64,000 nt of DNA from Alphaproteobacteria bacterium (GTDB taxonomy: Bacteria; Pseudomonadota; Alphaproteobacteria; UBA6615), in NCBI GenBank assembly GCA_009691025.1, contig SHWB01000007.1:28231-92230 (forward strand), written 5' to 3'. Positions 1,942-58,763 of the stretch are shown here, in pieces. Position 1 is the first letter of the stretch. Each line of letters opens with the position of its first letter. The notes under the pieces were generated by a model. That model did not search any database, was not told where the DNA came from, and was given only the letters and a program-made list of their open reading frames with translations. The position numbers and the translations under genes were made by a program.

Positions 1942-2229
1942 CTTGTTTTCCCCGAAGGCACTCTATCATTTCTTGGCGTCCAGCCAATCATGCAAAAAGC
2001 GTGCGACCACGACGATCTCATGCAGCGTGTGGTGCGTAGGCGCGATGCATACCTGAAATCCCGCGAAGCGCAAAAGTTCCCAGCGGCGATAACGTATCGG
2101 GCACGGACGTCGCGAACGCTTCCGAGGCGACGACTGCACGGCATGGTTCACGGCTGACTAGACGATAGCGAAGTCAGGATGGCCGGACGCGCGCATGCAT
2201 GCGTAACAACGTCTAGCGAGCAGCGACAC

Positions 2230-3030
2230 TCATGCCGGTCGGACCGCCAGCGCGGTGCGCGCGTCAGCGGCATCGCGCGCGATCTGCGCCTTCAACTCGT
2301 CGATGCCGGCGAAGCGGCGCTCCGGCCGCAGGAAGGCGACGAGTTTGACGCAGAGTAGCCGTCCGTAAAGATTGCCCGCCCAGTCGAACAGGTGCGCTTC
2401 CAGCAGTTCGGTCGTGCCGTCGACCGTCGGGCGGACGCCGATATTGGCCACGCCGCCCTGGCCGGCGAGGCGTCCGTCGGGCGTCGAGGCGCTCACGGCA
2501 TAGACCCCGAAGGCCGGCCGCACTGCGCGGCCGAGCCGGAGATTGGCGGTGGGAAAGCCTATGGTGCGGCCCAGCCGCCGTCCGTCGCGAACGCGCGCCA
2601 CAATCTCGTAGTGCCGGCCGAGCAGGGCGGCGGCTTCGGTCACGTCGCCCGCGGCGAGGCGGGCGCGGATGCCGGCGCCCGTCGCGGCAGCATCGCCCTC
2701 ATCGTCGCGCAGGATCGCCGCGGCGGCGAACGCGTCGCGCAGGGTCCTCTCGACGAAGGTCGCGGCGTCGTAGCCGGCGCCGCGCAGCAGCCACAGCGCG
2801 TCGGCGCCGCAGTCGCTCAGCAGGCGGGATTTGACGCGCAGGGGCGTCAGCTCCGTACCGGCCAGCGGTGGCGCGGCGACGATCAGCGCCGCGCCCTGCC
2901 GGTTGGCAACGGCGCGCGCGCTGGCGAGGAGGGTGCGGTGGCCGCGATGGACGCCGTCGAAAGCGCCGACCGCGAACACGGCACCGCGGGCGCCGCGCGG
3001 ACGGTCACGCCAGTGATGGTGAAGGTGCAT
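2230..3030 (-). CDS. ribF: Bifunctional riboflavin kinase / FMN adenylyltransferase (appears shorter than usual in the FAD-synthetase half)
   Basis: N-terminal FDGVHRGH nucleotidyltransferase motif; C-terminal riboflavin kinase region GRTIGFPTANL...; 266 aa versus about 310 typical. Confidence 0.75.
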   Translation of the reverse strand: MHLHHHWRDRPRGARGAVFAVGAFDGVHRGHRTLLASARAVANRQGAALIVAAPPLAGTELTPLRVKSRLLSDCGADALWLLRGAGYDAATFVERTLRDAFAAAAILRDDEGDAAATGAGIRARLAAGDVTEAAALLGRHYEIVARVRDGRRLGRTIGFPTANLRLGRAVRPAFGVYAVSASTPDGRLAGQGGVANIGVRPTVDGTTELLEAHLFDWAGNLYGRLLCVKLVAFLRPERRFAGIDELKAQIARDAADARTALAVRPA

Positions 3031-3753: not shown

Positions 3754-4338
3754 TCAGCCGGCGGCGGGCTGCACGATCATACGAAGCATGGTGCCGTCGA
3801 TAAGGGCCGACAGCACGAGGTCGAGGACGACCACGAAGGCCGCCGGCAGGCCGGCGATGTTGAGCGTGACGTGGGCGAGGAACCACGACCAGGCGGCCAG
3901 CAGGGTCTGGACGGCGCTGGCGATCGGCAACGCCCATGGTGGGCCGAGCAGGGCGATGACCACGGAGGCGGGCAGGGCGACCGCGAGCTGGACCACCTGC
4001 ATCCAGTTGTTGGCGACGACGAAGGCCACCCAGCGCTCGCCGCGCCCCAGCACATCGGCAACGCCGGACATCGCCAGCGGATAGGCTACCCAGAGCAGGA
4101 CATAGGCCGGGGGCAGGACGAAGGGCGCCACCGCCCTGTCGATCGCCACCGGGGCCGGCGGGTCGGACCAGACGAGGAGTTTCAGCAGCAGCCAGCCGGG
4201 CGCGACGATGATGGCGGCGGCGAAGGAGAGCACGAAGCCGGCAGACGTGGCATCGACCCAGACCTGCCCGGCACGGTCGAAATGCGCCAGCCGCCAGGCC
4301 GCGCCAAGGCCGCGTACGACATCGGCCAGCGCGATCAC
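3754..4338 (-). CDS. Conserved hypothetical integral membrane protein
   Basis: Multiple hydrophobic helices; 4-nt overlap with the dapE stop suggests co-transcription. Confidence 0.45.
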
Positions 4339-5521
4339 GCCGGTGCCGCGGGCGCGGCCGAATTGGTCCTGAACCAGTCCTCCAGCACGGCGAGATAGAT
4401 GTCCGCCAGCCGCTCGATATCGGAGGTGGCGGCGTGCTCGTCGACCTTGTGCATGGTCTGGCCAACCAGGCCGAACTCGGCAACCTGGCAGTGATCCTTG
4501 ATGAAACGCGCATCCGAGGTGCCGCCGGTGGTCGACAGCTCCGGCTCCCGGCCGGTCACGCGGCGCACGGCGCCGACGATAGTGTCCGACAGGCGCCCGG
4601 GCGGGGTGAGGAAGCTCTCGCCGGTCAGCATCGGCTCGACCGTCCAGCGGCCGCCGATCGCCGCGATTTTCGCCTGCACATGGGCGATCAGCGAGGCCGA
4701 GCTGTGCAGGTCGTTGAAGCGGATGTTGAAGGCGGCGCGCGCCTCTGCCGGGATGACATTGCCCGCCGGGTTCCCGACATCGACGGTGGAGACCTGCAGC
4801 GTCGTCGGCTGGAAATGCGCCGTGCCGAAATCTAGCGGCGCGGCGACGAGATGGTCGAGCAGGCGCACGAGGCGATGCACCGGATTGTCGGCGAGGTGCG
4901 GATAGGCGGTGTGGCCCTGCGTGCCATGCGCGATGACGCGGATGTGCAGGCTGCCGCGCCGGCCGATCTTGATCATGTCGCCGAGCGCCTCGGGATTGGT
5001 CGGCTCGCCGACGATGCAGGCATCGAGCGCCTCGCTACGCCCGGCAAGCCAGCCCAGCACCTTCTTCGTGCCGTTGATCGACGGGCCTTCCTCGTCGCCG
5101 GTGATCAGCAGGCTGATGGCGCCGGGCGGCCGGCCATGGCGGTCGAGATAGCGCGCCGCGGCGGCGACGAAGGCGGCGATGGCGCCCTTCATGTCGGCGG
5201 CGCCGCGGCCCCACAGCTTGCCGTCGGCGACAGTGCCGGCGAAGGGGTCGCTCTGCCAGGCCGCGACGTTGCCGGCCGGCACCACGTCGGTGTGGCCGGC
5301 GAAGCAGAAATTCGGCCGGCCGTCGCCGAGGCGCGCGTAGAGATTGTCGACCGGCGCCGTCCCCGCCTCCTCGAAGCGCAGGCGGTGGCAGGCGAAGCCG
5401 AGCGGCCGCAGCGTCGCCTCGAGCAGGCCGAGCGCGCCAGCATCCTCGGGCGTCACGCTGGGACAGCGGATCAGCGCGCCGGCGAACGCAACCGGATCGA
5501 TCCTGGGCGCGCCGCCAGCCA

Positions 5522-5522
<1 letters not shown>
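4335..5522 (-). CDS. dapE: Succinyl-diaminopimelate desuccinylase
   Basis: M20 peptidase motifs ([20 protein letters not shown]); the ATG overlaps the dapD stop (ATGA); the ORF track fuses it with an antisense frame of dapD. Confidence 0.85.
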
Positions 5523-6361
<839 letters not shown>

Positions 6362-6587
6362 CGTCTCTTCCCGTAAAACGCGCACGGCCCCCGAGCCTGC
6401 GGCGGACCGCGAAGATGGCCTTCGCCGCGCCGGCCTGTCAACGCCCGGCCAGCCGTGGCGAAGGCACGGGAGGCCGTGCCGTCAGCCGTTCGTTTACCGC
6501 CTCTCCTCTAGCCTTGCGGGACGAGGCGGACGGACCGGGGCGGTGCCGCCCAGGTCCCGACTCCGCCGGACAGGACGAGGCCAGCGT

Positions 6588-8345
6588 ATGGGCTTGAGCA
6601 AGAGCGCCGCCACCGCCGCTGGCACGATGGGCGAGCCGCGCGAAGCGGTGACCCAGCTTCGTGCCGAACGCGACCGGTTCGTGGCGCTGGCCTTCACCAG
6701 CGCCGACATCCTGATGGAGATTGGCGAGGGCGCTATCGTCGCCTTCGCGGCCGGCGCGATCAAGGCCTTCGTCGGCCGCCCCGACGACGTGCTGGTCGGC
6801 AGATGCTTTCTATACTGCGTGGTGAAATCCGACCGCGCGGTGGTCGATGGGCTGTTGCACAACGCGCGACGCGGCACGCGCATCGACAACGTCGCCGTCC
6901 GCCTGGTTGGCACGGCCGGTGAGACGCCGTCGCTGTCGTTGTTGGGCTTCCACATGCGCGAGCTGGGCGGCCACACTTACCTGTCGCTGCGCATGGCGCC
7001 GGTGCCGCGCGTGATCGATGTCGATTCGGTCGGCAGCATGCCCGACAGCACCGTGCTCGACAAATCCTCCTTCGCCAACGCCGCGACGCGCGCCGTCGAG
7101 GATGCGCGCGCTTCCGGAGAGGACAGCCGCCTGACCCTGCTCGACCTCAACAATTTCGTCGAGCTGCACGACCGCCTCGGCGAGGAAGCGCGCCAGGATC
7201 TGGAGCAGACCCTCGGCGCCACGCTGCGCGCCAGTTCTCTGCGCGGCGACACGGCGGCGCAACTCACCGAGGAGAAGTTCAGCCTCGTCCGCAGCATGCA
7301 TCGTGACGTGAAGGGCATGGCGCGGGAGAGCGAGACGGTGGCGCGCGCCGCCGATCCCGACGGCCAAGGCGTCCGCATAGCCAACCGCACCGTCGACGTC
7401 GACACGACACAATTGTCCGAGCAGGATGCGGTGAAGGCGCTCGTCTACACCATCAACCGCTACTGCGACACGACGCCCGAGGCCTTCAGCTTCCGCCCCC
7501 TGACGGAAAGCCTGTCGGTGCTGGCCGACGAGACGGTCGAGAAGATGGGCCGCTACGGCAAGCTCATCGAAGTGTCGAACTTCGAGGTTGCCTTCCATCC
7601 GATCTGCGACCTGCTGACCGGCCAGCCGCATTATTTCGAGGCGCTGGTCCGCTTCGACAAGAGCGTCGGCGCCTCGCCCTACGAATTCATCACCTTCGAC
7701 GAGGAAGTCGGCCTTATCTGCGAGTTTAACCTCGCCATGTGACGCAAAGTGCTGGAATTGGTGCGCGGGGCCAACGGGGCCGGCCACAAATACATGGTGG
7801 CGGTGAACATGTCGGGCCGCTCGCTGTCGACGCCGTCCCTCGTTGAGGCGATGCTGGCCATGCTGCGCGGCGCCGGCAAGGCGCGCGAGAACGTGCTGTT
7901 CGAGATCACCGAATCGGCGAAGCTCGACAATTTTCCGGAGGCCAACAACGTCATCCAGGGGCTGTGCAACGGTGGCAATATCGTCTGCCTCGACGATTTC
8001 GGCGCCGGCGTGTCGGCCTTCCAGCACCTGTTGGCGTTGCATATCGACGTGGTGAAGATCGACGGCGGCTACGTCCACAACGCCATCCGCAACGTGCGCT
8101 GCAAGGCGCTACTGAAGGCGATGGCCGGCATGTGCCGCGACCTGTCGATCACCACCATTGCCGAGATGATCGAGCGCGAGGAGGTCGCCCGCCTCGTGCA
8201 CGAATGCGGCATCGAGTACGGCCAAGGCCATCTCTACGGCAAGCCGCCCAAATACATCGACCAGTTCGCCGCGCCGCGGCCGGTGCCTTTCGACGCCGTG
8301 CCGATGCGTCGGCCGGGACCCGCCCGCAACGGCACGGAGGGCTGA
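6588..8345 (+). pseudogene. PAS-like / degenerate GGDEF / EAL c-di-GMP phosphodiesterase-type protein interrupted by an in-frame TGA at 7740-7742
   Basis: EALVRF motif and the following EAL block GLICEFNLAM[TGA]RKVLELV continue in the same frame, so the ORF track splits one gene into 6102..7742 and 7749..8345; GGDEF-like region lacks the GG(D/E)EF motif. Confidence 0.65.
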
Positions 8346-8351
8346 CGCCCG

Positions 8352-9074
8352 ATGCCGCACGCGCAGGGTGCCGCGATCGAGCCTCCCGAACCGCTGCTGC
8401 GGCCGCCGCCGCACGTCATGCCGGCGACCGCGCAGGCGCTGGTTTCGGGCTGGCCGGGCGCCGTGATCGTCTATGGCGGCGACGCCCGTATCGTCGCCGC
8501 CAATGGCGACGGCGCGCGGCTTGCCACCAGCCTCGGCAGCCCGGCCGCCCCGCTGACGGCGCTCGTCCGCCGCGCCGCCACGGGGACGGCCAGTATCGTC
8601 GAGCGTCTCGACATCGCCACGGCGAGCGGCCGGCAATGGCATCTGTGCGCGGCCATGCTGCTCGACAGCGGCATCGTCTGCGTGCTGGCGCGCGACGGAT
8701 CCTACGATGTGAACATCCGCAACGCGCTGGTCGATTCGCGCCAGCGCTAACGCGACCTCGTCACTATCTCCAGCGATTTCGTCTGGGAAACGGGCGAGGA
8801 CGGCCGCTTCGTCTTCGTCTCGCCGCACGGCGCGCTGGGCCTAAGCACCGACGAGCTGGTCGGCCGGCATCCGCGCGAACTGGAGATCGATCCCGCCGAT
8901 CCGGCGAGGCTGCGCCCCTTCGCCGCCGCTGACCCGATCGAGAACGCGCAGATCTGGGTGCGCGCCGCCGCCGGGGCCGAGGCCTGCGTGCTGGCCAGCG
9001 CCATGCCGGCGCGCGCCCGCGACTGGCGCCGGAGAGGCGCGCGCGGCCTCGTGGCGCGCATCGCCGACGACTAA
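8352..9074 (+). pseudogene. PAS-domain protein interrupted by an in-frame TAA at 8748-8750
   Basis: PAS-like sequence continues in frame across the stop: ...NALVDSRQR[TAA]RDLVTISSDFVWETGEDGRFVFVSPHG...; 6-nt gap to the upstream EAL gene (operon). Confidence 0.5.
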
Positions 9075-9264
9075 TTCGCGCTGTGGCTGGACGGCGCCGC
9101 GCTGGACGAAGGCGAGCGTCGCGCCGAGGACATTATCGAGACGGTGGTGGGCCTGCGCGAATGCGCGCCCAGCGCTGCCAAGCCGCTCGGCGCCTCCGTC
9201 TGAGGAGCGGCCGCAGGCCGCGTCTCGAAGGACGGGGCCCGGCGGTGGAAGCCGGGCGCGCGCC

Positions 9265-10176
9265 TCAGAACCCGCGCCAGATGGCCGTGCCGGCGCCGTG
9301 TTCGGTGAAGACTTCGAGCAGCACCGAATGTTCCGACCGGCCGTCGATGATGACGGCGGCCTCGACATTGGCCTCGACGGCGGCCATGCAGGTCTCGATC
9401 TTGGGGATCATGCCGCCGCTGATCGTGCCGTCCGCGACCAGGTCGCGCGCCTGCTCGACGGTGAGGTCGGTGATGAGCTTGCCCGATTTGTCGAGCACGC
9501 CGGCGACATCGGTCAGCATCAGCAGGCGTGTCGCCTTCACCGCCGCGGCGACGGCGCCGGCCACGGTGTCGGCGTTGATGTTGTAGGTCTCGCCGTCCGG
9601 CCCGACGCCGATCGGCGCGATTACCGGGATGATATGCGAGCGCGCGAAGACGTCGAGGATGCGGGCATCGACATGCTCGGGCTCGCCGACGAAGCCGAGG
9701 TCGAGCACCTTCTCGATGTTGCTGTCGGTATCGCGCTTCGTGCGCGTCATCTTGCGCGCGCGGATCAGGCCGCCATCCTTGCCCGACAGGCCGACCGCGG
9801 TGCCGCCGGCGGCGCCGATGGCGGCGGCTATCTGCTTGTTGATGGTGCCCGACAGCACCATCTCGACGATCTCGACGGTGGCGGCGTCGGTGACGCGCAG
9901 CCCGTCGACGAATTCGCTCTTGATCTTCAGGCGCTCCAGCATGCGGCCGATCTGTGGGCCGCCGCCATGCACCACCACCGGATTGATACCGATCTGCTTC
10001 AGCAGCACGATGTCGCGCGCGAAGGAATGCGCGACCGATTCGTCGCCCATGGCATGGCCGCCATACTTGACGACGAAGGTGCGGCCCGCGAAGCGGCGCA
10101 TGTAGGGCAGCGCCTCCACCAGGGTGGCGGCCTTGCCGATCAGCTCGGCGGCGGCGGGTGCGGGTTTGTCCGCCAT
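9265..10176 (-). CDS. argB: Acetylglutamate kinase
   Basis: Full-length amino-acid kinase with the typical ArgB N-terminus ([16 protein letters not shown]) and C-terminus. Confidence 0.9.
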
Positions 10177-10248
10177 GACGGTCTCGTTCCCCTGGATGTT
10201 GCGACGCAGGCGACGTTAGTGCAAATCGGCCGGGCGCGGAATCCTCCG

Positions 10249-10947
10249 TCAGCCGCCCGGCCCGCCGCCATGGCCGCTCGTGGGTACCGGCAGGGCGAAG
10301 GCGGCCAGCGCGACGCGCAGCGCCTCGATGCCGCGGTTCTTGCGGGCGCTGGTGGCCAGCACCCCGGGAAAGGCCGCGGTATGGCCGGCGGCAATCTTCG
10401 CCGTCTCGGCGAGTCGCGCGGCCAGATCCCTCGGCCCGATGGCGTCGACCTTGGTCAGCACGATCTGGAAGACGACAGCGCTGGCGTCGAGCAGGCGCAT
10501 CGTCGCCCGGTCGCTGTCCTTGATGCCGTGGCGCGCGTCGATCAGAAGGCAGACGCGGCACAGGGTCGGCCGGCCGGCGAGGTAGGCCTCGACCAGCCGC
10601 GTCCAGGACGCAACCTTCTCCTTGGCGACCTTGGCGTAGCCGAAGCCGGGCAGATCTACCAGCGCCAGCCTGCCGCCGAGATCGAAGAAGACGAGCTGCC
10701 GCGTGCGGCCGGGCGTGCGCGAGGTGCGCGCCAGCGCGGTGCGGCCGGTCAGCGCGTTGACCAGCGACGATTTGCCGACGTTCGAGCGGCCGGCGAAGGC
10801 GATCTCCGGCAGGATTGCTGGCGGCAGCGCCGCCTCGATTGGCGCCGCGGCGGCGAAGTCGCACGGGCCGGCGAACAGGCGCCGCGCCGCTGCCTCGGCC
10901 GCATCCTCCGCCGCCGGGGCGGCCGCGCCTCCGGCCGGTTTTGCCAT
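10249..10947 (-). CDS. yihA: Ribosome biogenesis GTP-binding protein YihA/EngB
   Basis: G1 motif GRSNVGKSS, G3 DLPGFGY; conserved position next to yidC. Confidence 0.85.
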   Translation of the reverse strand: MAKPAGGAAAPAAEDAAEAAARRLFAGPCDFAAAAPIEAALPPAILPEIAFAGRSNVGKSSLVNALTGRTALARTSRTPGRTRQLVFFDLGGRLALVDLPGFGYAKVAKEKVASWTRLVEAYLAGRPTLCRVCLLIDARHGIKDSDRATMRLLDASAVVFQIVLTKVDAIGPRDLAARLAETAKIAAGHTAAFPGVLATSARKNRGIEALRVALAAFALPVPTSGHGGGPGG

Positions 10948-10948
10948 G

Positions 10949-12709
10949 TCAGCCCGTCTTGCCGCCGCCGGGCTTCGGGGGCGGCGGGGTCGTGCCGCCG
11001 CCGATGGCGACGCCCATCGATCGCATGATGAGGTACTGCTGCGCGATCGACAGGAGGTTGTTCCACGTCCAGTAGATCACCAGAGCGGACGGGAAGCTGG
11101 CGAGGAAGAAGGTGAATATCAGCGGCATGAAGGTGAACATCTTCGCCTGGATGGGATCGGCCGGCGCCGGGTTAAGCTTCATCTGGGCGAACATCGTGAT
11201 GCCCATGACGATCGGCCAGATGCCGATATGCAGCAGCGAGGGCGGCGACCACGGGACGAGGCCGAACAGCGTGAACAGATTGGTTGGGTCGACCGAGGAC
11301 AAGTCGCGGATCCAGCCGTAGAACGGCGCGTGCCTCACCTCGATCGAGATCAGGATAATCTTGTAGAGGGCGAAGAACACCGGGATCTGGATGACGATGG
11401 GCAAACAGCCGGAGACCGGGTTGACCTTCTCGCGGCGGTACAGCCCCATCAGCTCCTGCTGCATCTTCTGGCGGTCGGCGCCGTACTTTTCTCGCAGCTC
11501 CATCATCTTCGGCTGCAGCGCCTTCATCTTGCTCATCGATCGATAGGATTTGTTGGCGAGTGGGAAGAAGGCGAGTTTCACCAGCACGGTGAGGGCGAGG
11601 ATGGCGAGGCCGATATTGCCGAGGTAGTCGGTCAGCCAGAGCAGGAAGTGCAGAAAGGGCTTGGTGAGGAAGAAGAACCAGCCGAAATCGATGGCGCGGT
11701 CGAAGCGTTCGATGCCGTGATTATCGCGATAGGCGTCGAGCAGCTGGACGTGCTTGGCGCCGGCGAACAGGCGGTGGGTTACCTCGGCGCTGTAGCCAGG
11801 CGAGATGCTCTGCCAGCCGCCGCGCATGTCCGCCTGGTAGCGGTCGACGCCGCCCTCGACGGTATGGCGGAAGGCGGCATCGACCGCTGCCTGCTGGTCG
11901 GGGATCAGGGCCACCAGCCAGTAGATGTCGGTGAAGCCGATCCAGCCGCCGGTCGAGGCGTACTCTCGCGTGCGGTCGTCGACGACGTTGTCGTAGTTGG
12001 GCTCCTGCAGCACGCCGCCGAGCATGCCGATCGGGCCTTCATGGAGCACGAAGTAGCCGAGCGTCTCCGGCGTGCCGATGCGCCGCACGCGGCCGAACGG
12101 AAACAGCTTCGCCGTCTCGCTGCCGCGGTTGGTCACGCGGTCGGTGACCGTGAACAGGTAATGGTCGTCGACCGCGATGGTCCGCGTGAACAGCAGGCCG
12201 GCGCCGTTGTCGAGGGTGAGCGTCAGCGGCGAAGACGGTGTGAGCGTGCCGCCGGCGGATTGCCACTGCGCATCGCCGAGGCCGAAGCTGTGGTCCGCCT
12301 CGTCGACCCAGCCATATTCGACGTAGTAGGGGTTCGCGGTGCCCGGGGGGGCTAGCAGCGTGACGTCCGGGCTGTCCGGCGCGGCCGTCACCTGCTTGCG
12401 TAGCAGGGTGAGGTCGTCGATACGGCCGCCATCGAGATCGACCGAGCCGGACAGCGCCGGTGTCGCGATCTTCACCCGGCGCGACTGCGCTAGCACCTGC
12501 TCGCGCGGCGGCGTGGCGACCGCGCCGGTACCTCTGACGGCGGCACCCGGCACCGGCGGGCCGACGGCATTCCCCTGCGGCCGGGCCATCTCGGCCTGCT
12601 GCGCCAGCTCCGCCTCGCGCTGCATCTGCGGCGTCTCGACGAAGATGTTCCAGCCGAGCAGGATCGCCACGGAGAGCGCGATCGCGATGATGAGGTTCTT
12701 CTGGTCCAT
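10949..12709 (-). CDS. yidC: Membrane protein insertase YidC
   Basis: 586 aa; N-terminal TM helix, periplasmic domain, conserved C-terminal 5-TM core; rpmH-rnpA-yidD-yidC synteny. Confidence 0.9.
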   Translation of the reverse strand: MDQKNLIIAIALSVAILLGWNIFVETPQMQREAELAQQAEMARPQGNAVGPPVPGAAVRGTGAVATPPREQVLAQSRRVKIATPALSGSVDLDGGRIDDLTLLRKQVTAAPDSPDVTLLAPPGTANPYYVEYGWVDEADHSFGLGDAQWQSAGGTLTPSSPLTLTLDNGAGLLFTRTIAVDDHYLFTVTDRVTNRGSETAKLFPFGRVRRIGTPETLGYFVLHEGPIGMLGGVLQEPNYDNVVDDRTREYASTGGWIGFTDIYWLVALIPDQQAAVDAAFRHTVEGGVDRYQADMRGGWQSISPGYSAEVTHRLFAGAKHVQLLDAYRDNHGIERFDRAIDFGWFFFLTKPFLHFLLWLTDYLGNIGLAILALTVLVKLAFFPLANKSYRSMSKMKALQPKMMELREKYGADRQKMQQELMGLYRREKVNPVSGCLPIVIQIPVFFALYKIILISIEVRHAPFYGWIRDLSSVDPTNLFTLFGLVPWSPPSLLHIGIWPIVMGITMFAQMKLNPAPADPIQAKMFTFMPLIFTFFLASFPSALVIYWTWNNLLSIAQQYLIMRSMGVAIGGGTTPPPPKPGGGKTG

Positions 12710-21031: not shown

Positions 21032-21100
21032 CCTCCCTCGGTGCTCGGCGAAAGGTCCGCCCGCGTTGACCGGCTCACGGCGCGCTTCTAGCCTTCCCCC

Positions 21101-21529
21101 ATGCTCGAGACAGTGGCCGACCGCCTGCTCGCCGCCATCGCCGCACGGCGCGACGATGTGGCGAAACGGACTTCGGAGCTGGTGCGCATTCCCTCGGTCA
21201 ATCCGCCCGGCGAGGCCTATGCCGAATGCTGCGAGGCGCTGGCGCTGCGGCTCGGCAATCGGCGCTTCCGCTGCGATTACCTGCGCGCCGAGGGCGCGCC
21301 GGGCTACAGCGACGCCCATCCGCGCCTCAACATCGTCACCCGTCGCGAGGGCGCGCGGCACGGGCCCTGCGTGCATTTCAACAGCCATATCGACGTCGCC
21401 GCCGCCGGCCAGGGCTGGACGGCGGACCCCTTCGGCGGCGAGATTTGCGACGGCATGGTCTGGGGCCGCGGCACGGCCGACATGGATGGTGGCCTCGCCG
21501 CCGCGCGCCTGCTGGGGACGCTCGCGTGA
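21101..21529 (+). pseudogene. Truncated M20-family peptidase (ArgE/DapE-like), N-terminal 142 aa only
   Basis: Ends just after the conserved GRGTADMDGG block (GRGxxDMKG equivalent); M20 peptidases are about 380-400 aa; the stop overlaps the GTG start of the next gene. Confidence 0.55.
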
Positions 21530-47913: not shown

Positions 47914-48048
47914 CCAGGCATCCTCGTCCTTCGACAGGCTCAGGATGAGGATGCCTGGCTCGGTCGTTGTGTGACCGCCTCACCCTGAGCGTCCTCACCC
48001 TGAGGAGCCGCCGCAAGGCGGCGTCTCGAAGGGCGAGGGGCGAGGCGG
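47914..48048. repeat. REP/MITE-like palindromic element (family 1), full copy
   Basis: GCCAGGCATCCTCgtccttcgacaggctcaggatGAGGATGCCTGGC followed by CCTCACCCTGAGCGTCCTCACCCTGAGGAGCCGCCGCAAGGCGGCGTCTCGAAGGGCGAGGGGCGAGG. Confidence 0.55.
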
Positions 48049-48058
48049 CTGCACGCTC

Positions 48059-49690
48059 TCAGGTCGCCACGGCCGCCGAATGCACGGCCTGCAAATCGAA
48101 GGCAGCCGCCATCAGGGCCTGGGTGTAGGTCTCGCGCGGATGCTCAAAGATGTCGGCGGCGGGGGCCTGTTCCACCACCTTGCCGCCGCGCAGCACGATG
48201 ACGTGGTCGGCCATGGCGCGCACCACCTTGAGATCGTGGCTGATGAACAGGAAGGCGAGGCGGTGGCGCTGCTGCAGTCCGCGCAGCAGCTCGACGATCT
48301 GCGCCTGCACCGAGCGGTCGAGCGCCGAGGTAGGCTCGTCGAGTACGACGAAGCGCGGCTTCAGCACGAGGGCGCGCGCGATGGCGACGCGCTGGCGCTG
48401 TCCGCCGGAGAATTCGTGCGGGTAGCGGTAGCGCGTGGCGGGGTCGAGTCCCACCTCCTGCATCACCTCGACGATCATGCGGTCGCGCCCGGCCTCGTCG
48501 GCGCCGATGCGGTGCACCTCCAGCCCCTCGGCGATGATGCGCGCGATCGACATGCGCGGGCTGAGGCTGCCATAGGGGTCCTGGAAGACGATCTGCATCT
48601 CGCGGCGCAGCGGCCGCACCGCGCTCGCCGACATCCCGTCGATATTCTTGCCGAGGAAGACGACGGGGCCCTCGGAGGACAGCAGGCGCAGCAGCGCGAG
48701 TCCGAGGGTCGTCTTGCCCGATCCGGATTCGCCGACCACGCCGACGGTCTGGCCTTCGCGCACTTCCAGCGTCACGCCGTCGACGGCGCGCACATAATCG
48801 ACCGTGCGGCGCAGGATGCCGGACTTGATTGGGAAGTAGACCTTCAGGTTATCGGCCTGCATCACCATCACCGCATCTGAAGGCGGCACGTTCGGCGCTC
48901 CGGTCGGTTCCGACGACAGCAGATGGCGCGTGTAGTTGTGCGACGGAGCGGAGAAGATGCCCTTCGTCGTGCCCTGCTCGACGATCTCTCCGCCGCGCAT
49001 GACGGCGACGCGGTCGGCCATGCGCGCAACGATGCCGAGATCGTGGGTGATGAACAGCATGCTCATGCCGAAGCGTTTCTTGAGCTGCTGCAGCAATTCG
49101 AGGATCTGCGCCTGGATGGTGACGTCGAGTGCCGTCGTCGGCTCGTCGGCGATCAGCAGCGAGGGCTCGTTGGCCAGCGCCATGGCGATCATCACGCGCT
49201 GGCGCTGGCCGCCCGACAGCTCGTGCGGATAGGCACCGAGACGCTTGTTGGCCTCGGCCAGACCGACGAGCTTCAGCAGTTCCAGCGTGCGCGCGCGGGC
49301 GGCGGAGCGGCTCATGCCCTTGTGGATGAACAGCACCTCGTTGATCTGCTTCTCGATGGTGTGCAACGGGTTCAGCGAGGTCATCGGCTCCTGGAAGATC
49401 ATGGCTATGCGGTTGCCGCGGATCTTGCGCAGCCGGTCCTGCGAAGCGCCGACCAACTCCTCGCCCTCGAAGCGGATGGAGGAGCCGGCGGGGTGCCGCG
49501 CCACGGGGTAGGGCAGCAATTGCAGCACCGACAGCGCCGTTACCGACTTGCCGGAGCCGGATTCTCCGACCAGCGCCACCGTCTCGCCGCGCGCCACCTG
49601 CAGCGATACGCCGCGCACCGCGTGCACAGCGCCTCCGGGGGTGGCGAAATCGACCCCGAGGTTGCCGATGGCCAGCAACGGTTCGGTCAT
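48059..49690 (-). CDS. yejF: Peptide/microcin C-type ABC importer, fused double ATP-binding protein
   Basis: Two ABC cassettes, each with Walker A GESGSGK(S/T) and LSGGQRQR. Confidence 0.85.
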
Positions 49691-50784
49691 GTCCCGTCCC
49701 CCGTCACCTGCTTGCGCGGATCGAAGGCGTCGCGTACCGCCTCGCCGATGAAGACCGACAGGCTCAGCATCACGGCGATGACGAAGAAGCCGGTGATGCC
49801 GAGCCACGGCGCCTGCAAATTCTCCTTGCCCTGCTTCAGCAGCTCGCCGAGCGAGGCCGATCCGGGCGGCAGGCCGAAGCCGAGATAGTCTAGGCCGGTC
49901 AGCGCCGTCAGCGCACCCGCCGTCACGAAGGGCAGCATAGACAGGGTCGCCACCATGGCGTTTGGCAGCACATGGCGAGCCATGATAGTGCGGTTGCCGA
50001 CGCCGAGCGCGCGGGCCGCGCGCACATAATCGAAGCTGCGGGCGCGCAGGAATTCGGCGCGCACGACGCCGACTAGGGCGGTCCAGCTGAACAGCGCGAG
50101 CAAGCACAGCAGCGTCCAGAAGCCGGGCGCGAACACGCTCGACAGGATGATCAGCAGGAAGAATGTCGGCATCGCTTCCCAGACCTCTATGAAGCGCTGG
50201 AACAGCAGATCGACCCAGCCGCCGTAATAGCCCTGCACCGCCCCGGCCATCACCCCGACGGCGCTGGCGACGATCGTCAGCGCGAGGCCGAACAGCACCG
50301 AGATGCGATAGCCGTAGATCAGCCGGGCCACCACGTCGCGCGCCTGGTCGTCGGTGCCGAGCCAGTTCTTCGCGCTGGGCGGCGCCGGCGCCGGCACGGT
50401 GAGGTCGGTGACCGGGCTGTCGTAGCTGTAGGGCACCAGCGGCCACAGCATCCAGCCGCCCTTTTCGGCGATAAGGTCGTGCAGATAGGGGTCTGTGTAG
50501 TCCGCCTCGGTGGCGAAGTCGCCGCCGAATGCCGTCTCCGGATAGAATTTGAACACCGGCATGTAGAAGGCGCCGTCGTGGCGGATCAGCAGCGGCCGGT
50601 CGTTGGCGATGAACTCCGATCCGAGGCTGACGAGGAACAGCAGCAGGAAGATCCACAGCGACCACCAGCCGCGCCGGTTGGCGCAGAAATTGGCCAGCCG
50701 CCGCGCGGTGATCGGATCGAGACGCATCCCTAGCATCCGTATGCGGCCGTAGGCCGCCGGCATGGTGTTGGTCACGGCACTCAT
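49687..50784 (-). CDS. yejE: Peptide ABC importer permease
   Basis: BPD-type permease with long N-terminal periplasmic extension; ATGA overlaps on both sides. Confidence 0.8.
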
Positions 50785-57555: not shown

Positions 57556-58089
57556 TCACATCCGCGCACGCTCGATCAATGCAGGCGTCTCGGCCATCGC
57601 CCTCGCTACGATGGCGGCGCAGGAGCGGGCGGCGGCCAGCGCGTCGTGGTGCTGCACGAGATCGATGCCCAGCGTCAGGCAGACATTTGGCAGCCGCGTC
57701 TGGCGGATGTTCAATGCCGCGCGCGCCAACTTTACCGTGCAGATGAAGCGCTTGCGCAATGGCGGCAAGCCGTAGCGCGCGGCGGTCGCGCGCTGCACGT
57801 TGCGGTCGAAGCCGGCGTTGTGCGCTGCGAGTAATTCGGCGCCGGCGGCGAAGCGGGCGATGGCCGGGTAATGGCCGGCTAAGTTGGGCGCTTCGGAGAC
57901 ATGCTCCCGGGCGATGCCGTGCAGCGCGGTGAAGCGCGGCACGAACCAGCGTTCCGGCTGGTGGATGGGCAGAGCCAGCTAGTCCGTGACGATCCCGTAC
58001 TCGACCCGCACGAGGACGAGGGCGCTGGCGCTGTCGGCGCTGTAATTGGCGGTCTCGAAGTCGATCGCCACGAAAACATGGTGCGGCAC
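57556..58089 (-). pseudogene. DnaQ-like 3'-5' exonuclease (DEDDh) interrupted by an in-frame TAG at 57979-57981
   Basis: Exo I motif VFVAIDFETAN in ORF 57979..58275 and Exo III motif HNAGFDRNV in ORF 57556..57942 are in the same frame, separated only by TAG (...VEYGIVTD[TAG]LALPIHQPERWFVPRFTAL...). Confidence 0.55.
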
Positions 58090-58115
58090 TGGCCGCAGTT
58101 CTAACGGGGGCTCCG

Positions 58116-58763
58116 TCACAGCGCCGCGGCGGAGGCGAGGAATGCGCGGATCTTGGCGGGGTCCTTCTTCCCCGGGGCCGTCTCCACGCCCGACGAAACA
58201 TCCACCGTGCGCGCGCCCGACAGCGTCACCGCGCGGGCGAGGTTGGCCGCGTCGAGGCCGCCGGCGAGCATCCATGGCATGGGCCAGTTGCGGCTGGCGA
58301 GCAGCGTCCAGTCGAAGGTCACGGCGTTGCCGCCGGGCAGCGCGCCGATCATGCCTTTCGGCGGGCGCGCATCGAACATCAGCCAGTCGGCGCTACCGCG
58401 ATAGGAGCTCGCGGCGTCGAGGTCGGCGGCCTCGCCGATCTTCAGCACCTTCATCGCCGCCAGGCCGGTGCGGCGCTTCAATTCCATCACCCGCGCCGGC
58501 GTCTCGTCGCCGTGCAGCTGCAGCATGTCGAGCTTCGCCGCGGCGACCGCGGTGGCGATGGTGGCATCGTCGGCATCGACGAACAGGCCGACCTTCTTCA
58601 CCTCCGGCGGCACGAGGGCGGCGAGCGCCCGCACCTGGTCTGGCGTCACGGCGCGCGGGCTCGGCGGATAGAACACGAAGCCGACGAAGCGGGCGCCACC
58701 GGAAACGGCCGTGCGGACCGAGGCCGCATTGTTGAGGCCGCAGATTTTTGCCGCCACGCTCAT
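58116..58763 (-). CDS. trpF: Phosphoribosylanthranilate isomerase
   Basis: TIM-barrel TrpF blocks (KICG, LQLHGDE); overlaps the pyrF stop. Confidence 0.85.

Follow-up and report, generated by a model that had tools for sequence, protein, structure and literature searches.

Gene decay is a textbook process, typical of host-restricted pathogens and of other lineages under relaxed selection, and the unitary bacterial pseudogenes that it leaves behind are recognized by stop codons where orthologues have sense codons, by deletions between short direct repeats, by raised replacement at conserved sites, by AT-biased changes and by the joint decay of linked genes. Here we describe a locus that is like such pseudogenes in each of these respects (short direct repeats flank one of its deletions). 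It lies in a 64-kb stretch of DNA, hereafter the window, which has a G+C content of 69.5% and comes from an uncultured alphaproteobacterium of Lake Baikal, sampled at 1250–1350 m. The locus consists of two adjacent genes of the cyclic di-GMP (c-di-GMP) signaling type: gene 1, for a PAS-like/degenerate-GGDEF/EAL protein, and gene 2, the remnant of a gene for a PAS-GAF-GGDEF diguanylate cyclase. A sequence-only reading of the window had reported an in-frame stop in each gene (TGA at 7740–7742 and TAA at 8748–8750) and had held it meaningful that both genes of one apparent operon, 6 nt apart, were hit. The peptides and coordinates that it quoted are exact, the two genes do form one operon-like unit, and the double hit does carry meaning; indeed, the operon bears five independent disabling lesions, compared with the two first described. 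The best explanation, which we consider very probable, is that the locus is a recently inactivated, decaying cluster of unitary pseudogenes. As a phenomenon, such gene death is textbook pseudogene formation, already known and of low novelty; unlike the classic pseudogene lineages, however, the host is apparently free-living deep-lake plankton, to judge from the source of the sample alone.

The family to which gene 1 belongs is like the GGDEF-EAL tandem proteins of known structure, MorA (Protein Data Bank (PDB) entry 4rnh) and PA0861 (5xgb), in its domain order, its degenerate GGDEF domain and its complete set of EAL residues, and MorA 4rnh is the best PDB match of the gene 1 protein (E=1.5e-32 over GGDEF-EAL). 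By architecture the protein also resembles the PdeA-type enzymes of Caulobacter, which we take to be of the same PAS/degenerate-GGDEF/EAL kind. Gene 1 is, however, orthologous to no named enzyme (DibA, the best of its NCBIfam equivalogs, reaches 138 bits where 980 are required), and the copy in the window is interrupted. The frame opens with the ATG at 6588, meets the internal TGA at codon 385, where it reads ...EFNLAM*RKVLELVRG... (the asterisk marks the stop), and runs on in the same frame to the TGA at 8343–8345. When the stop was masked, the Pfam EAL domain (PF00563) was matched in one stretch that bridges it, from residue 327 to residue 553 (model positions 8–236 of 236; 162.7 bits against a cut-off of 31.3, E=1.2e-47), which bears out the proposal of a continuous EAL domain; as it stands in the window, that domain is split at codon 385. 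The Pfam GGDEF match is weak (residues 159–239, 24.2 bits, model positions 12–92 of 161), and TEEKF, as had been noticed, takes the place of the GG(D/E)EF motif. Since no orthologue has an intact signature either (they have SDEKF, DDNRF, DENRF and others), TEEKF is a trait of the family and not a product of decay.

Comparison with intact relatives gives the ancestral state at the stop. Two orthologues have the full 585 aa: the protein P0001, from locus L001 (GCA_050246875.1), is 84% identical to the gene 1 protein, and a second, from a contig found by a metagenome scan (SXGR01266570.1, hereafter L085), is 90.8% identical, and its gene, intact over all 585 codons, is 91.5% identical in nucleotides to that of the window. 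A protein search returned many others at 40–57% identity, all of them uninterrupted. At the column of the stop, the 78 orthologues have Cys (32), Ala (29), Val (10), Phe (5), Ser (1) or Met (1), and both L001 and L085 have TGC, so the change was from a Cys codon and not, as the sequence-only reading had thought plausible, from TGG. Orthologues are uninterrupted at the stop of gene 2 as well.

Gene 2 opens with the ATG at 8352 and reads ...DSRQR*RDLVTISSDFVWETG... across its first stop. It had been described as a gene for a PAS protein; it is instead the stump of a gene for a 574-aa PAS-GAF-GGDEF cyclase that has suffered two deletions and a further nonsense codon. The intact orthologue is like the PAS/GAF-sensor GGDEF cyclases, with PAS (residues 134–242), GAF-like (278–385) and GGDEF (398–553) domains and a canonical RIGGDEF motif (Pfam GGDEF 145 bits, TIGR00254 151.5 bits). 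In contrast, all that the window retains is ~233 codons from the N-terminal end and a further ~50 that surround the GGDEF motif, now altered to ADD*F. The first stop, at residue 133, falls in the RYRDL linker at the N-terminal edge of PAS (Pfam PAS_4 matches residues 141–229), at a column occupied by Tyr in 36 and by Phe in 9 of 45 orthologues. The earlier claim of a continuous PAS fold therefore stands insofar as orthologues read through this position with Tyr or Phe, but not insofar as it placed the stop within the fold, because the stop lies outside the PAS core. The TAA at 9072–9074 had been taken for the end of the gene; it replaces the invariant Glu of GGDEF, and the old frame runs past it to the TGA at 9201–9203. 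The alignment displays the RxGGDEF motif in the orthologues, whereas a search of the gene 2 remnant with Pfam gave no GGDEF match, and no complete GGDEF domain is left in it.

Both deletions can be placed against L001. The first runs from the end of PAS through the GAF-like region to the middle of GGDEF; of its two flanks, window 8301–9051 corresponds to L001 11714–12466 and window 9044–9200 to L001 13170–13326, and the 8 bp common to both pieces are a direct repeat of the form CG(G/A)CCTCG. The second cost the cyclase gene its 3′ end and removed altogether a gene for a DUF2336/SpbR-like protein (430 aa) and a 110-aa open reading frame (ORF); in all, ~2.6 kb of the ancestral module is missing from the window. 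All three nonsense mutations are G:C→T:A changes, a bias that is unremarkable, given the many routes that lead from GC-rich codons to stops of such a type.

Table 1. Features of the decaying c-di-GMP locus and of its intact flanks (window coordinates).
Feature	Position	Strand	Basis or remark
Gene 1: PAS-like/degenerate GGDEF/EAL c-di-GMP phosphodiesterase-type pseudogene, 585 codons	6588..8345	+	Translation, Pfam, orthologues
Nonsense codon TGA, codon 385; TGC (Cys) → TGA by C→A	7740..7742	+	TGC in L001 and L085
Gene 2: PAS-GAF-GGDEF diguanylate cyclase remnant	8352..9203	+	blastn and tblastn against L001; alignment with orthologues
Nonsense codon TAA; TAC (Tyr) → TAA by C→A, RYRDL linker just before PAS	8748..8750	+	L001 has TAC
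Junction of 711-bp (237-codon, in-frame) deletion at 8-bp microhomology CGGCCTCG	9044..9051	+	L001 alignment
Destroyed motif: L001 GGC GGC GAC GAA TTC (GGDEF) → GCC GAC GAC TAA TTC (A D D * F)	9063..9077	+	
Third nonsense codon TAA; GAA (Glu of GGDEF) → TAA by G→T	9072..9074	+	E in 45/45 orthologues
Second deletion: L001 13327–15290 (~1.96 kb) replaced by 60 unalignable bases	9201..9260	.	L001 alignment
dapD, intact left synteny anchor	5522..6361	-	92% identical to L001 dapD, dN/dS 0.086
argB, intact right synteny anchor	9265..10176	-	97% identical to L001 argB, dN/dS 0.048

The order of genes in L001 is dapE and dapD, then the genes for the EAL protein (585 aa), the PAS-GGDEF protein (574 aa) and the DUF2336 protein (430 aa) and the 110-aa ORF, and then argB, engB and yidC. 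A scan of species-representative genomes found 79 loci, all from uncultured Alphaproteobacteria, mostly labelled Rhodospirillales-like, and 67 of these had enough flanking sequence to be informative. The EAL, PAS-GGDEF and DUF2336 genes are consecutive in 43 of the 67, mostly between dapD and argB, with dapE-dapD conserved on the left of the module and argB-engB on the right. The EAL gene has been kept and adjoins argB directly in eight loci, which have independently lost the cyclase and DUF2336 genes; one locus has EAL and DUF2336, and in the remaining 15 the homologue lies elsewhere. Because the order is intact in 43 of the informative loci, the three-gene module is ancestral and the state of the window derived.

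The gene of L085 supplies an internal clock for the decay of gene 1. By three-taxon parsimony with L001 as the outgroup, the window branch has 43 synonymous changes, 46 replacements and 1 stop, whereas the L085 branch has 44 synonymous changes, 3 replacements and no stop. With the stop counted, the ratio of replacement to synonymous changes (N:S) is 47:43 for the window and 3:44 for L085 (Fisher p=2.5e-8), a 16-fold excess of replacements; expressed with the site counts used for pairwise ratios of nonsynonymous to synonymous substitution rates (dN/dS), omega is ~0.37 on the window branch and 0.02 on that of L085. Since equal synonymous counts mean equal time and equal mutation input, the excess reflects lost constraint. 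On the window branch, N:S is 29:27 for residues 1–326 (3:22 in L085), 4:4 for residues 327–384 and 14:12 for residues 386–585; with N:S alike in all parts, the fragment 5′ of the stop has been preserved no better than the 3′ fragment. Among the residues of gene 1 that were replaced in the window are several that are otherwise near-invariant (Q337H, H349Y, A371D, D381N, W391L, R460C, H464N and Y480H).

Consistent with these findings, when differences were polarized with outgroups the window branch had replacements at 9.9% (41/414) of conserved columns in the three disrupted segments, compared with 3.3% (44/1321) in five intact neighboring genes (odds ratio 3.2, p=6e-7), whereas the corresponding values for the L001 branch are 1.4% and 1.2% (p=0.8). 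Changes in the dead segments are also more often AT-biased than those in the neighboring genes (20/31 and 11/31, respectively; p=0.04), as is expected of unselected DNA in a genome of such high G+C content. A relative-rate ratio points the same way (41:6 against 44:16, p=0.09), weakly, since every gene evolves faster in the window lineage, and we judged the rate per conserved site to be the better measure. By rough inference, selection would have ceased to act on the EAL gene over roughly the final third of the window branch after its split from L085.

These data bear on whether the stops might be recoded, with the UGA read as selenocysteine (Sec) or by programmed read-through, so that functional full-length proteins would be made; of these, the sequence-only reading had entertained read-through. 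As in selenoprotein genes, the UGA of gene 1 aligns with Cys in many homologues (32 of 78), the classic look of a Sec/Cys pair, and a UGA followed by C, as here, is a leaky stop context. Unlike in selenoprotein genes, however, Cys is not conserved at the column, where Ala, Val and Phe are common, the closest intact relative, L085, has TGC, and the sequence 3′ of the stop is unconstrained, with replacements raised on both sides of it. The 70 nt after the UGA (7740–7810) fold at −20.8 kcal/mol, compared with a mean of −21.7 for shuffled sequences (z=+0.32), and contain no hairpin like a selenocysteine insertion sequence (SECIS); there is no Rfam match at the TGA, and the few matches in 7600–9300 fall far below gathering scores and belong to unrelated families. 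Moreover, the three stop positions use both TGA and TAA, and UAA, the codon at the other two, cannot encode Sec; a deletion has deprived the partner gene of its catalytic domain; and the only tRNA genes in the window are those for tRNA-Leu and tRNA-Ala. Recoding of these stops is thus, in our estimation, extremely improbable. A programmed read-through site in particular was rejected, as the stop is not kept in L085 and the downstream N:S of 14:12 indicates no purifying selection. Genome-wide recoding, or poor sequence, was likewise rejected, as the only other clear in-frame stop in the window is in an exonuclease gene.

The same evidence speaks to gene fission, in which a 384-aa N-terminal fragment (sensor and degenerate GGDEF), a re-initiated C-terminal EAL fragment of 194–198 aa, or both, would still work. 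Both pieces appear among the predictions of gene callers, GTG codons lie beyond the stop (7749 and 7761), the C-terminal piece has its catalytic residues intact, and the eight related lineages that keep EAL without the cyclase and DUF2336 genes indicate that the EAL protein can be useful alone. However, the split falls inside the EAL barrel and parts the EAL motif from the N, ExxE, DD, K, E and Q residues; the lineage-specific N:S is ~1.1 in every part, including residues 1–326, where L085 shows strong preference for synonymous change; and both halves have suffered replacements of near-invariant residues (Q337H, H349Y, A371D, D381N, W391L, R460C and Y480H). We regard working fragments as very unlikely, if slightly less so than recoding. 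The public gene calls at the locus, namely a 384-aa "GGDEF domain-containing protein" (MSO80873.1), a 194-aa EAL ORF and a 132-aa "hypothetical protein" (MSO80875.1), are best read as pseudogene fragments.

The broken locus is reproducible across samples. Logan contigs from SRR8561391 and SRR8561390, which derive from winter samples taken in Lake Baikal at 1250 m and 1350 m (bioRxiv 10.1101/2020.04.02.019802), are 100% and 99.95% identical to the window over 7294–9229 and 7394–9229, respectively, and so take in each of the three stops as well as the junction of the first deletion; they extend ~30 bp beyond the second deletion's breakpoint (9200/9201) and end short of argB. The sole difference in SRR8561390, T>G at 8836, changes Leu to Arg within the dead PAS remnant. 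A 132-aa product terminated by the TAA recurs in the NCBI metagenome-assembled genome (MSO80875.1, EXQ97_04420), in two contigs of ENA assembly ERZ1305449 and in the Logan contigs of both runs. In ERZ1305449, where the comparison was made with gene calls and one protein, the gene 1 product (P0002) is truncated at the same codon as in the window and carries one residue variant, S236R. No intact allele of this species was among the listed best matches of the protein search, and the lesions seem to be fixed in the Baikal population. The only two polymorphisms seen between assemblies, the Leu→Arg change and S236R, are both replacements inside dead genes.

It could still be asked whether sequencing, assembly or binning has created the lesions in a genome whose genes are really intact, given that the source is a metagenome-assembled genome and that single-base errors can create stops. 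An artefact of this sort is scarcely credible: the separately assembled runs gave the same sequence, the ENA assembly gave the same truncated products in spite of its one-residue variant, and errors would not concentrate five independent lesions and 46 replacements in two genes while leaving the neighboring genes clean. A scan of frame composition (GC by codon position) across the whole window flagged 16 sites, among which only 7740, 8748 and 57979 are true internal stops; most of the others are antisense frames or natural same-frame boundaries (14560, 34243 and 56652).

Several observations nonetheless weigh against inactivation of the locus. The set of EAL residues E351, R355, N407, E439, E442, D469, D470, K490, E526 and Q546 (the E of EAL, R, N, ExxE, DD, K, E and Q), whose catalytic and metal-binding roles we presume, is invariant in the alignment and complete in the window copy as in the family. 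Pairwise dN/dS between the window and L001 is 0.20 for the EAL gene, compared with 0.21 for yidC and 0.19 for dapE, so that by this measure alone the gene looks constrained; the value is unremarkable because inactivation was recent. Traces of full-length gene 1 protein might, on general grounds, possibly be made by near-cognate read-through at UGA-C; any such product would be burdened with numerous damaging replacements and would lack its cyclase partner. Finally, both sequencing runs come from one study and one lake and thus show fixation in that population rather than independence of lineages. Set against the lesions, the ancestral codons and the loss of constraint, these points leave decay of a unitary pseudogene cluster the most probable reading by far.

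Under this reading of the locus as dying, the ancestor had the module dapD | EAL, PAS-GAF-GGDEF, DUF2336 | argB, in which gene 1 encoded a PAS-like/degenerate-GGDEF/EAL protein, presumed to be a c-di-GMP phosphodiesterase, gene 2 a PAS-GAF-GGDEF diguanylate cyclase, and gene 3 a DUF2336 (SpbR-like) protein. From what is known of their domains, the intact proteins are expected to make and break c-di-GMP in response to signals sensed through PAS and GAF. The module would then have ceased to be needed in the window lineage, which has gathered, in whatever order, the changes TGC→TGA, TAC→TAA and GAA→TAA, the 711-bp deletion between 8-bp direct repeats, the ~1.96-kb deletion and many replacements at otherwise conserved residues. 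A functional full-length product is predicted to be absent, and the remaining sequence would be neutral and headed for deletion. The cyclase and DUF2336 pair has been repeatedly dispensable elsewhere, and in the window lineage the EAL gene has followed suit.

On this account the locus is removed as a candidate for stop-codon recoding, its in-frame stops being very probably plain gene death. Its value is a modest one, as a case, cleanly dated, in which an entire c-di-GMP module has been discarded, with an intact relative at 91.5% identity that shows equal synonymous change and 16-fold fewer replacements. That a DUF2336/SpbR-like gene is so tightly and so widely linked to a phosphodiesterase/cyclase pair also offers a lead to DUF2336 function, and a role for DUF2336 as a downstream partner of the c-di-GMP gene pair is plausible. 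The DUF2336 protein of L001 scores 170.8 bits with Pfam DUF2336 and 132.8 bits (E 1.6e-38) with NCBIfam SpbR, below the cut-off of 400; SpbR is thus the nearest named relative of the deleted gene but a distant one, and the window has no copy of the gene. SpbR (Caulobacter CC2323) is a polar/chromosome-segregation protein delivered to ClpXP by RcdA (bioRxiv 10.1101/2020.06.12.148478). A search for relevant literature on DUF2336, or on SpbR with PopZ, returned none.

Other loci of the scan show further variation in the module. Three (L037, L039 and L041) have two tandem DUF2336 genes. The EAL gene in L015 and L059 and the PAS-GGDEF gene in L012 and L066 gave split tblastn matches that suggest frameshifts, which may be real disruptions or indel errors, and the 340-aa protein P0113 may be a fragment of the L059 EAL gene. 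L001 also contains, at 4477–5664, a gene for a 395-aa GAF/adenylate-guanylate-cyclase-like protein that is absent at window 2142–2245; a homologue was found in none of the other fetched loci, the difference may be an insertion in L001 or a loss from the window, and we did not count it as a loss.

Elsewhere in the window, a gene for a DEDDh/RNase_T-family 3′–5′ exonuclease on the minus strand (57556–58270) has an in-frame TAG at 57979–57981 that is bridged by its Pfam match. The closest relatives (P0132, 86% identical, and P0133, 83%) have Glu at this site, pointing to a GAG→TAG change, and several conserved residues differ in the window copy (C→S, G→V, W→R, W→L and P→Q among others). A 142-aa ORF on the plus strand (21092–21529), probably what is left of a truncated gene, corresponds to the N-terminal one-third or so of an M20 peptidase (Pfam model positions 2–43 of 206); a gene for an S58 (DmpA-like) peptidase, read in a different frame, follows it immediately. 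The genes for an ABC-transporter permease and ATPase at 47979–50781 are intact.

The damaged genes, together with the faster evolution of neighboring genes described below, hint at generally weakened selection in the window lineage, as sampled by this one window. A broader reading would be that the module is one functional unit, widespread in Rhodospirillales-like alphaproteobacteria, in which a dedicated c-di-GMP phosphodiesterase/cyclase pair controls a polarity or cell-cycle protein, and that a free-living deep-freshwater lineage is still shedding genes across its genome, the loss of the module here being one instance. This reading draws on the presence of at least four damaged genes in 64 kb, on neighbors whose proteins evolve ~2.75-fold faster than in the sister lineage and on the repeated loss of the downstream pair in eight other lineages; we put it forward tentatively, as a doubtful though not fanciful extension. 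In dapD, dapE, argB, engB and yidC (4335–12709), 44 polarized replacements fall on the window branch and 16 on the L001 branch, and in yidC 7 of 170 highly conserved columns have changed on the window branch, compared with 0 on the L001 branch.

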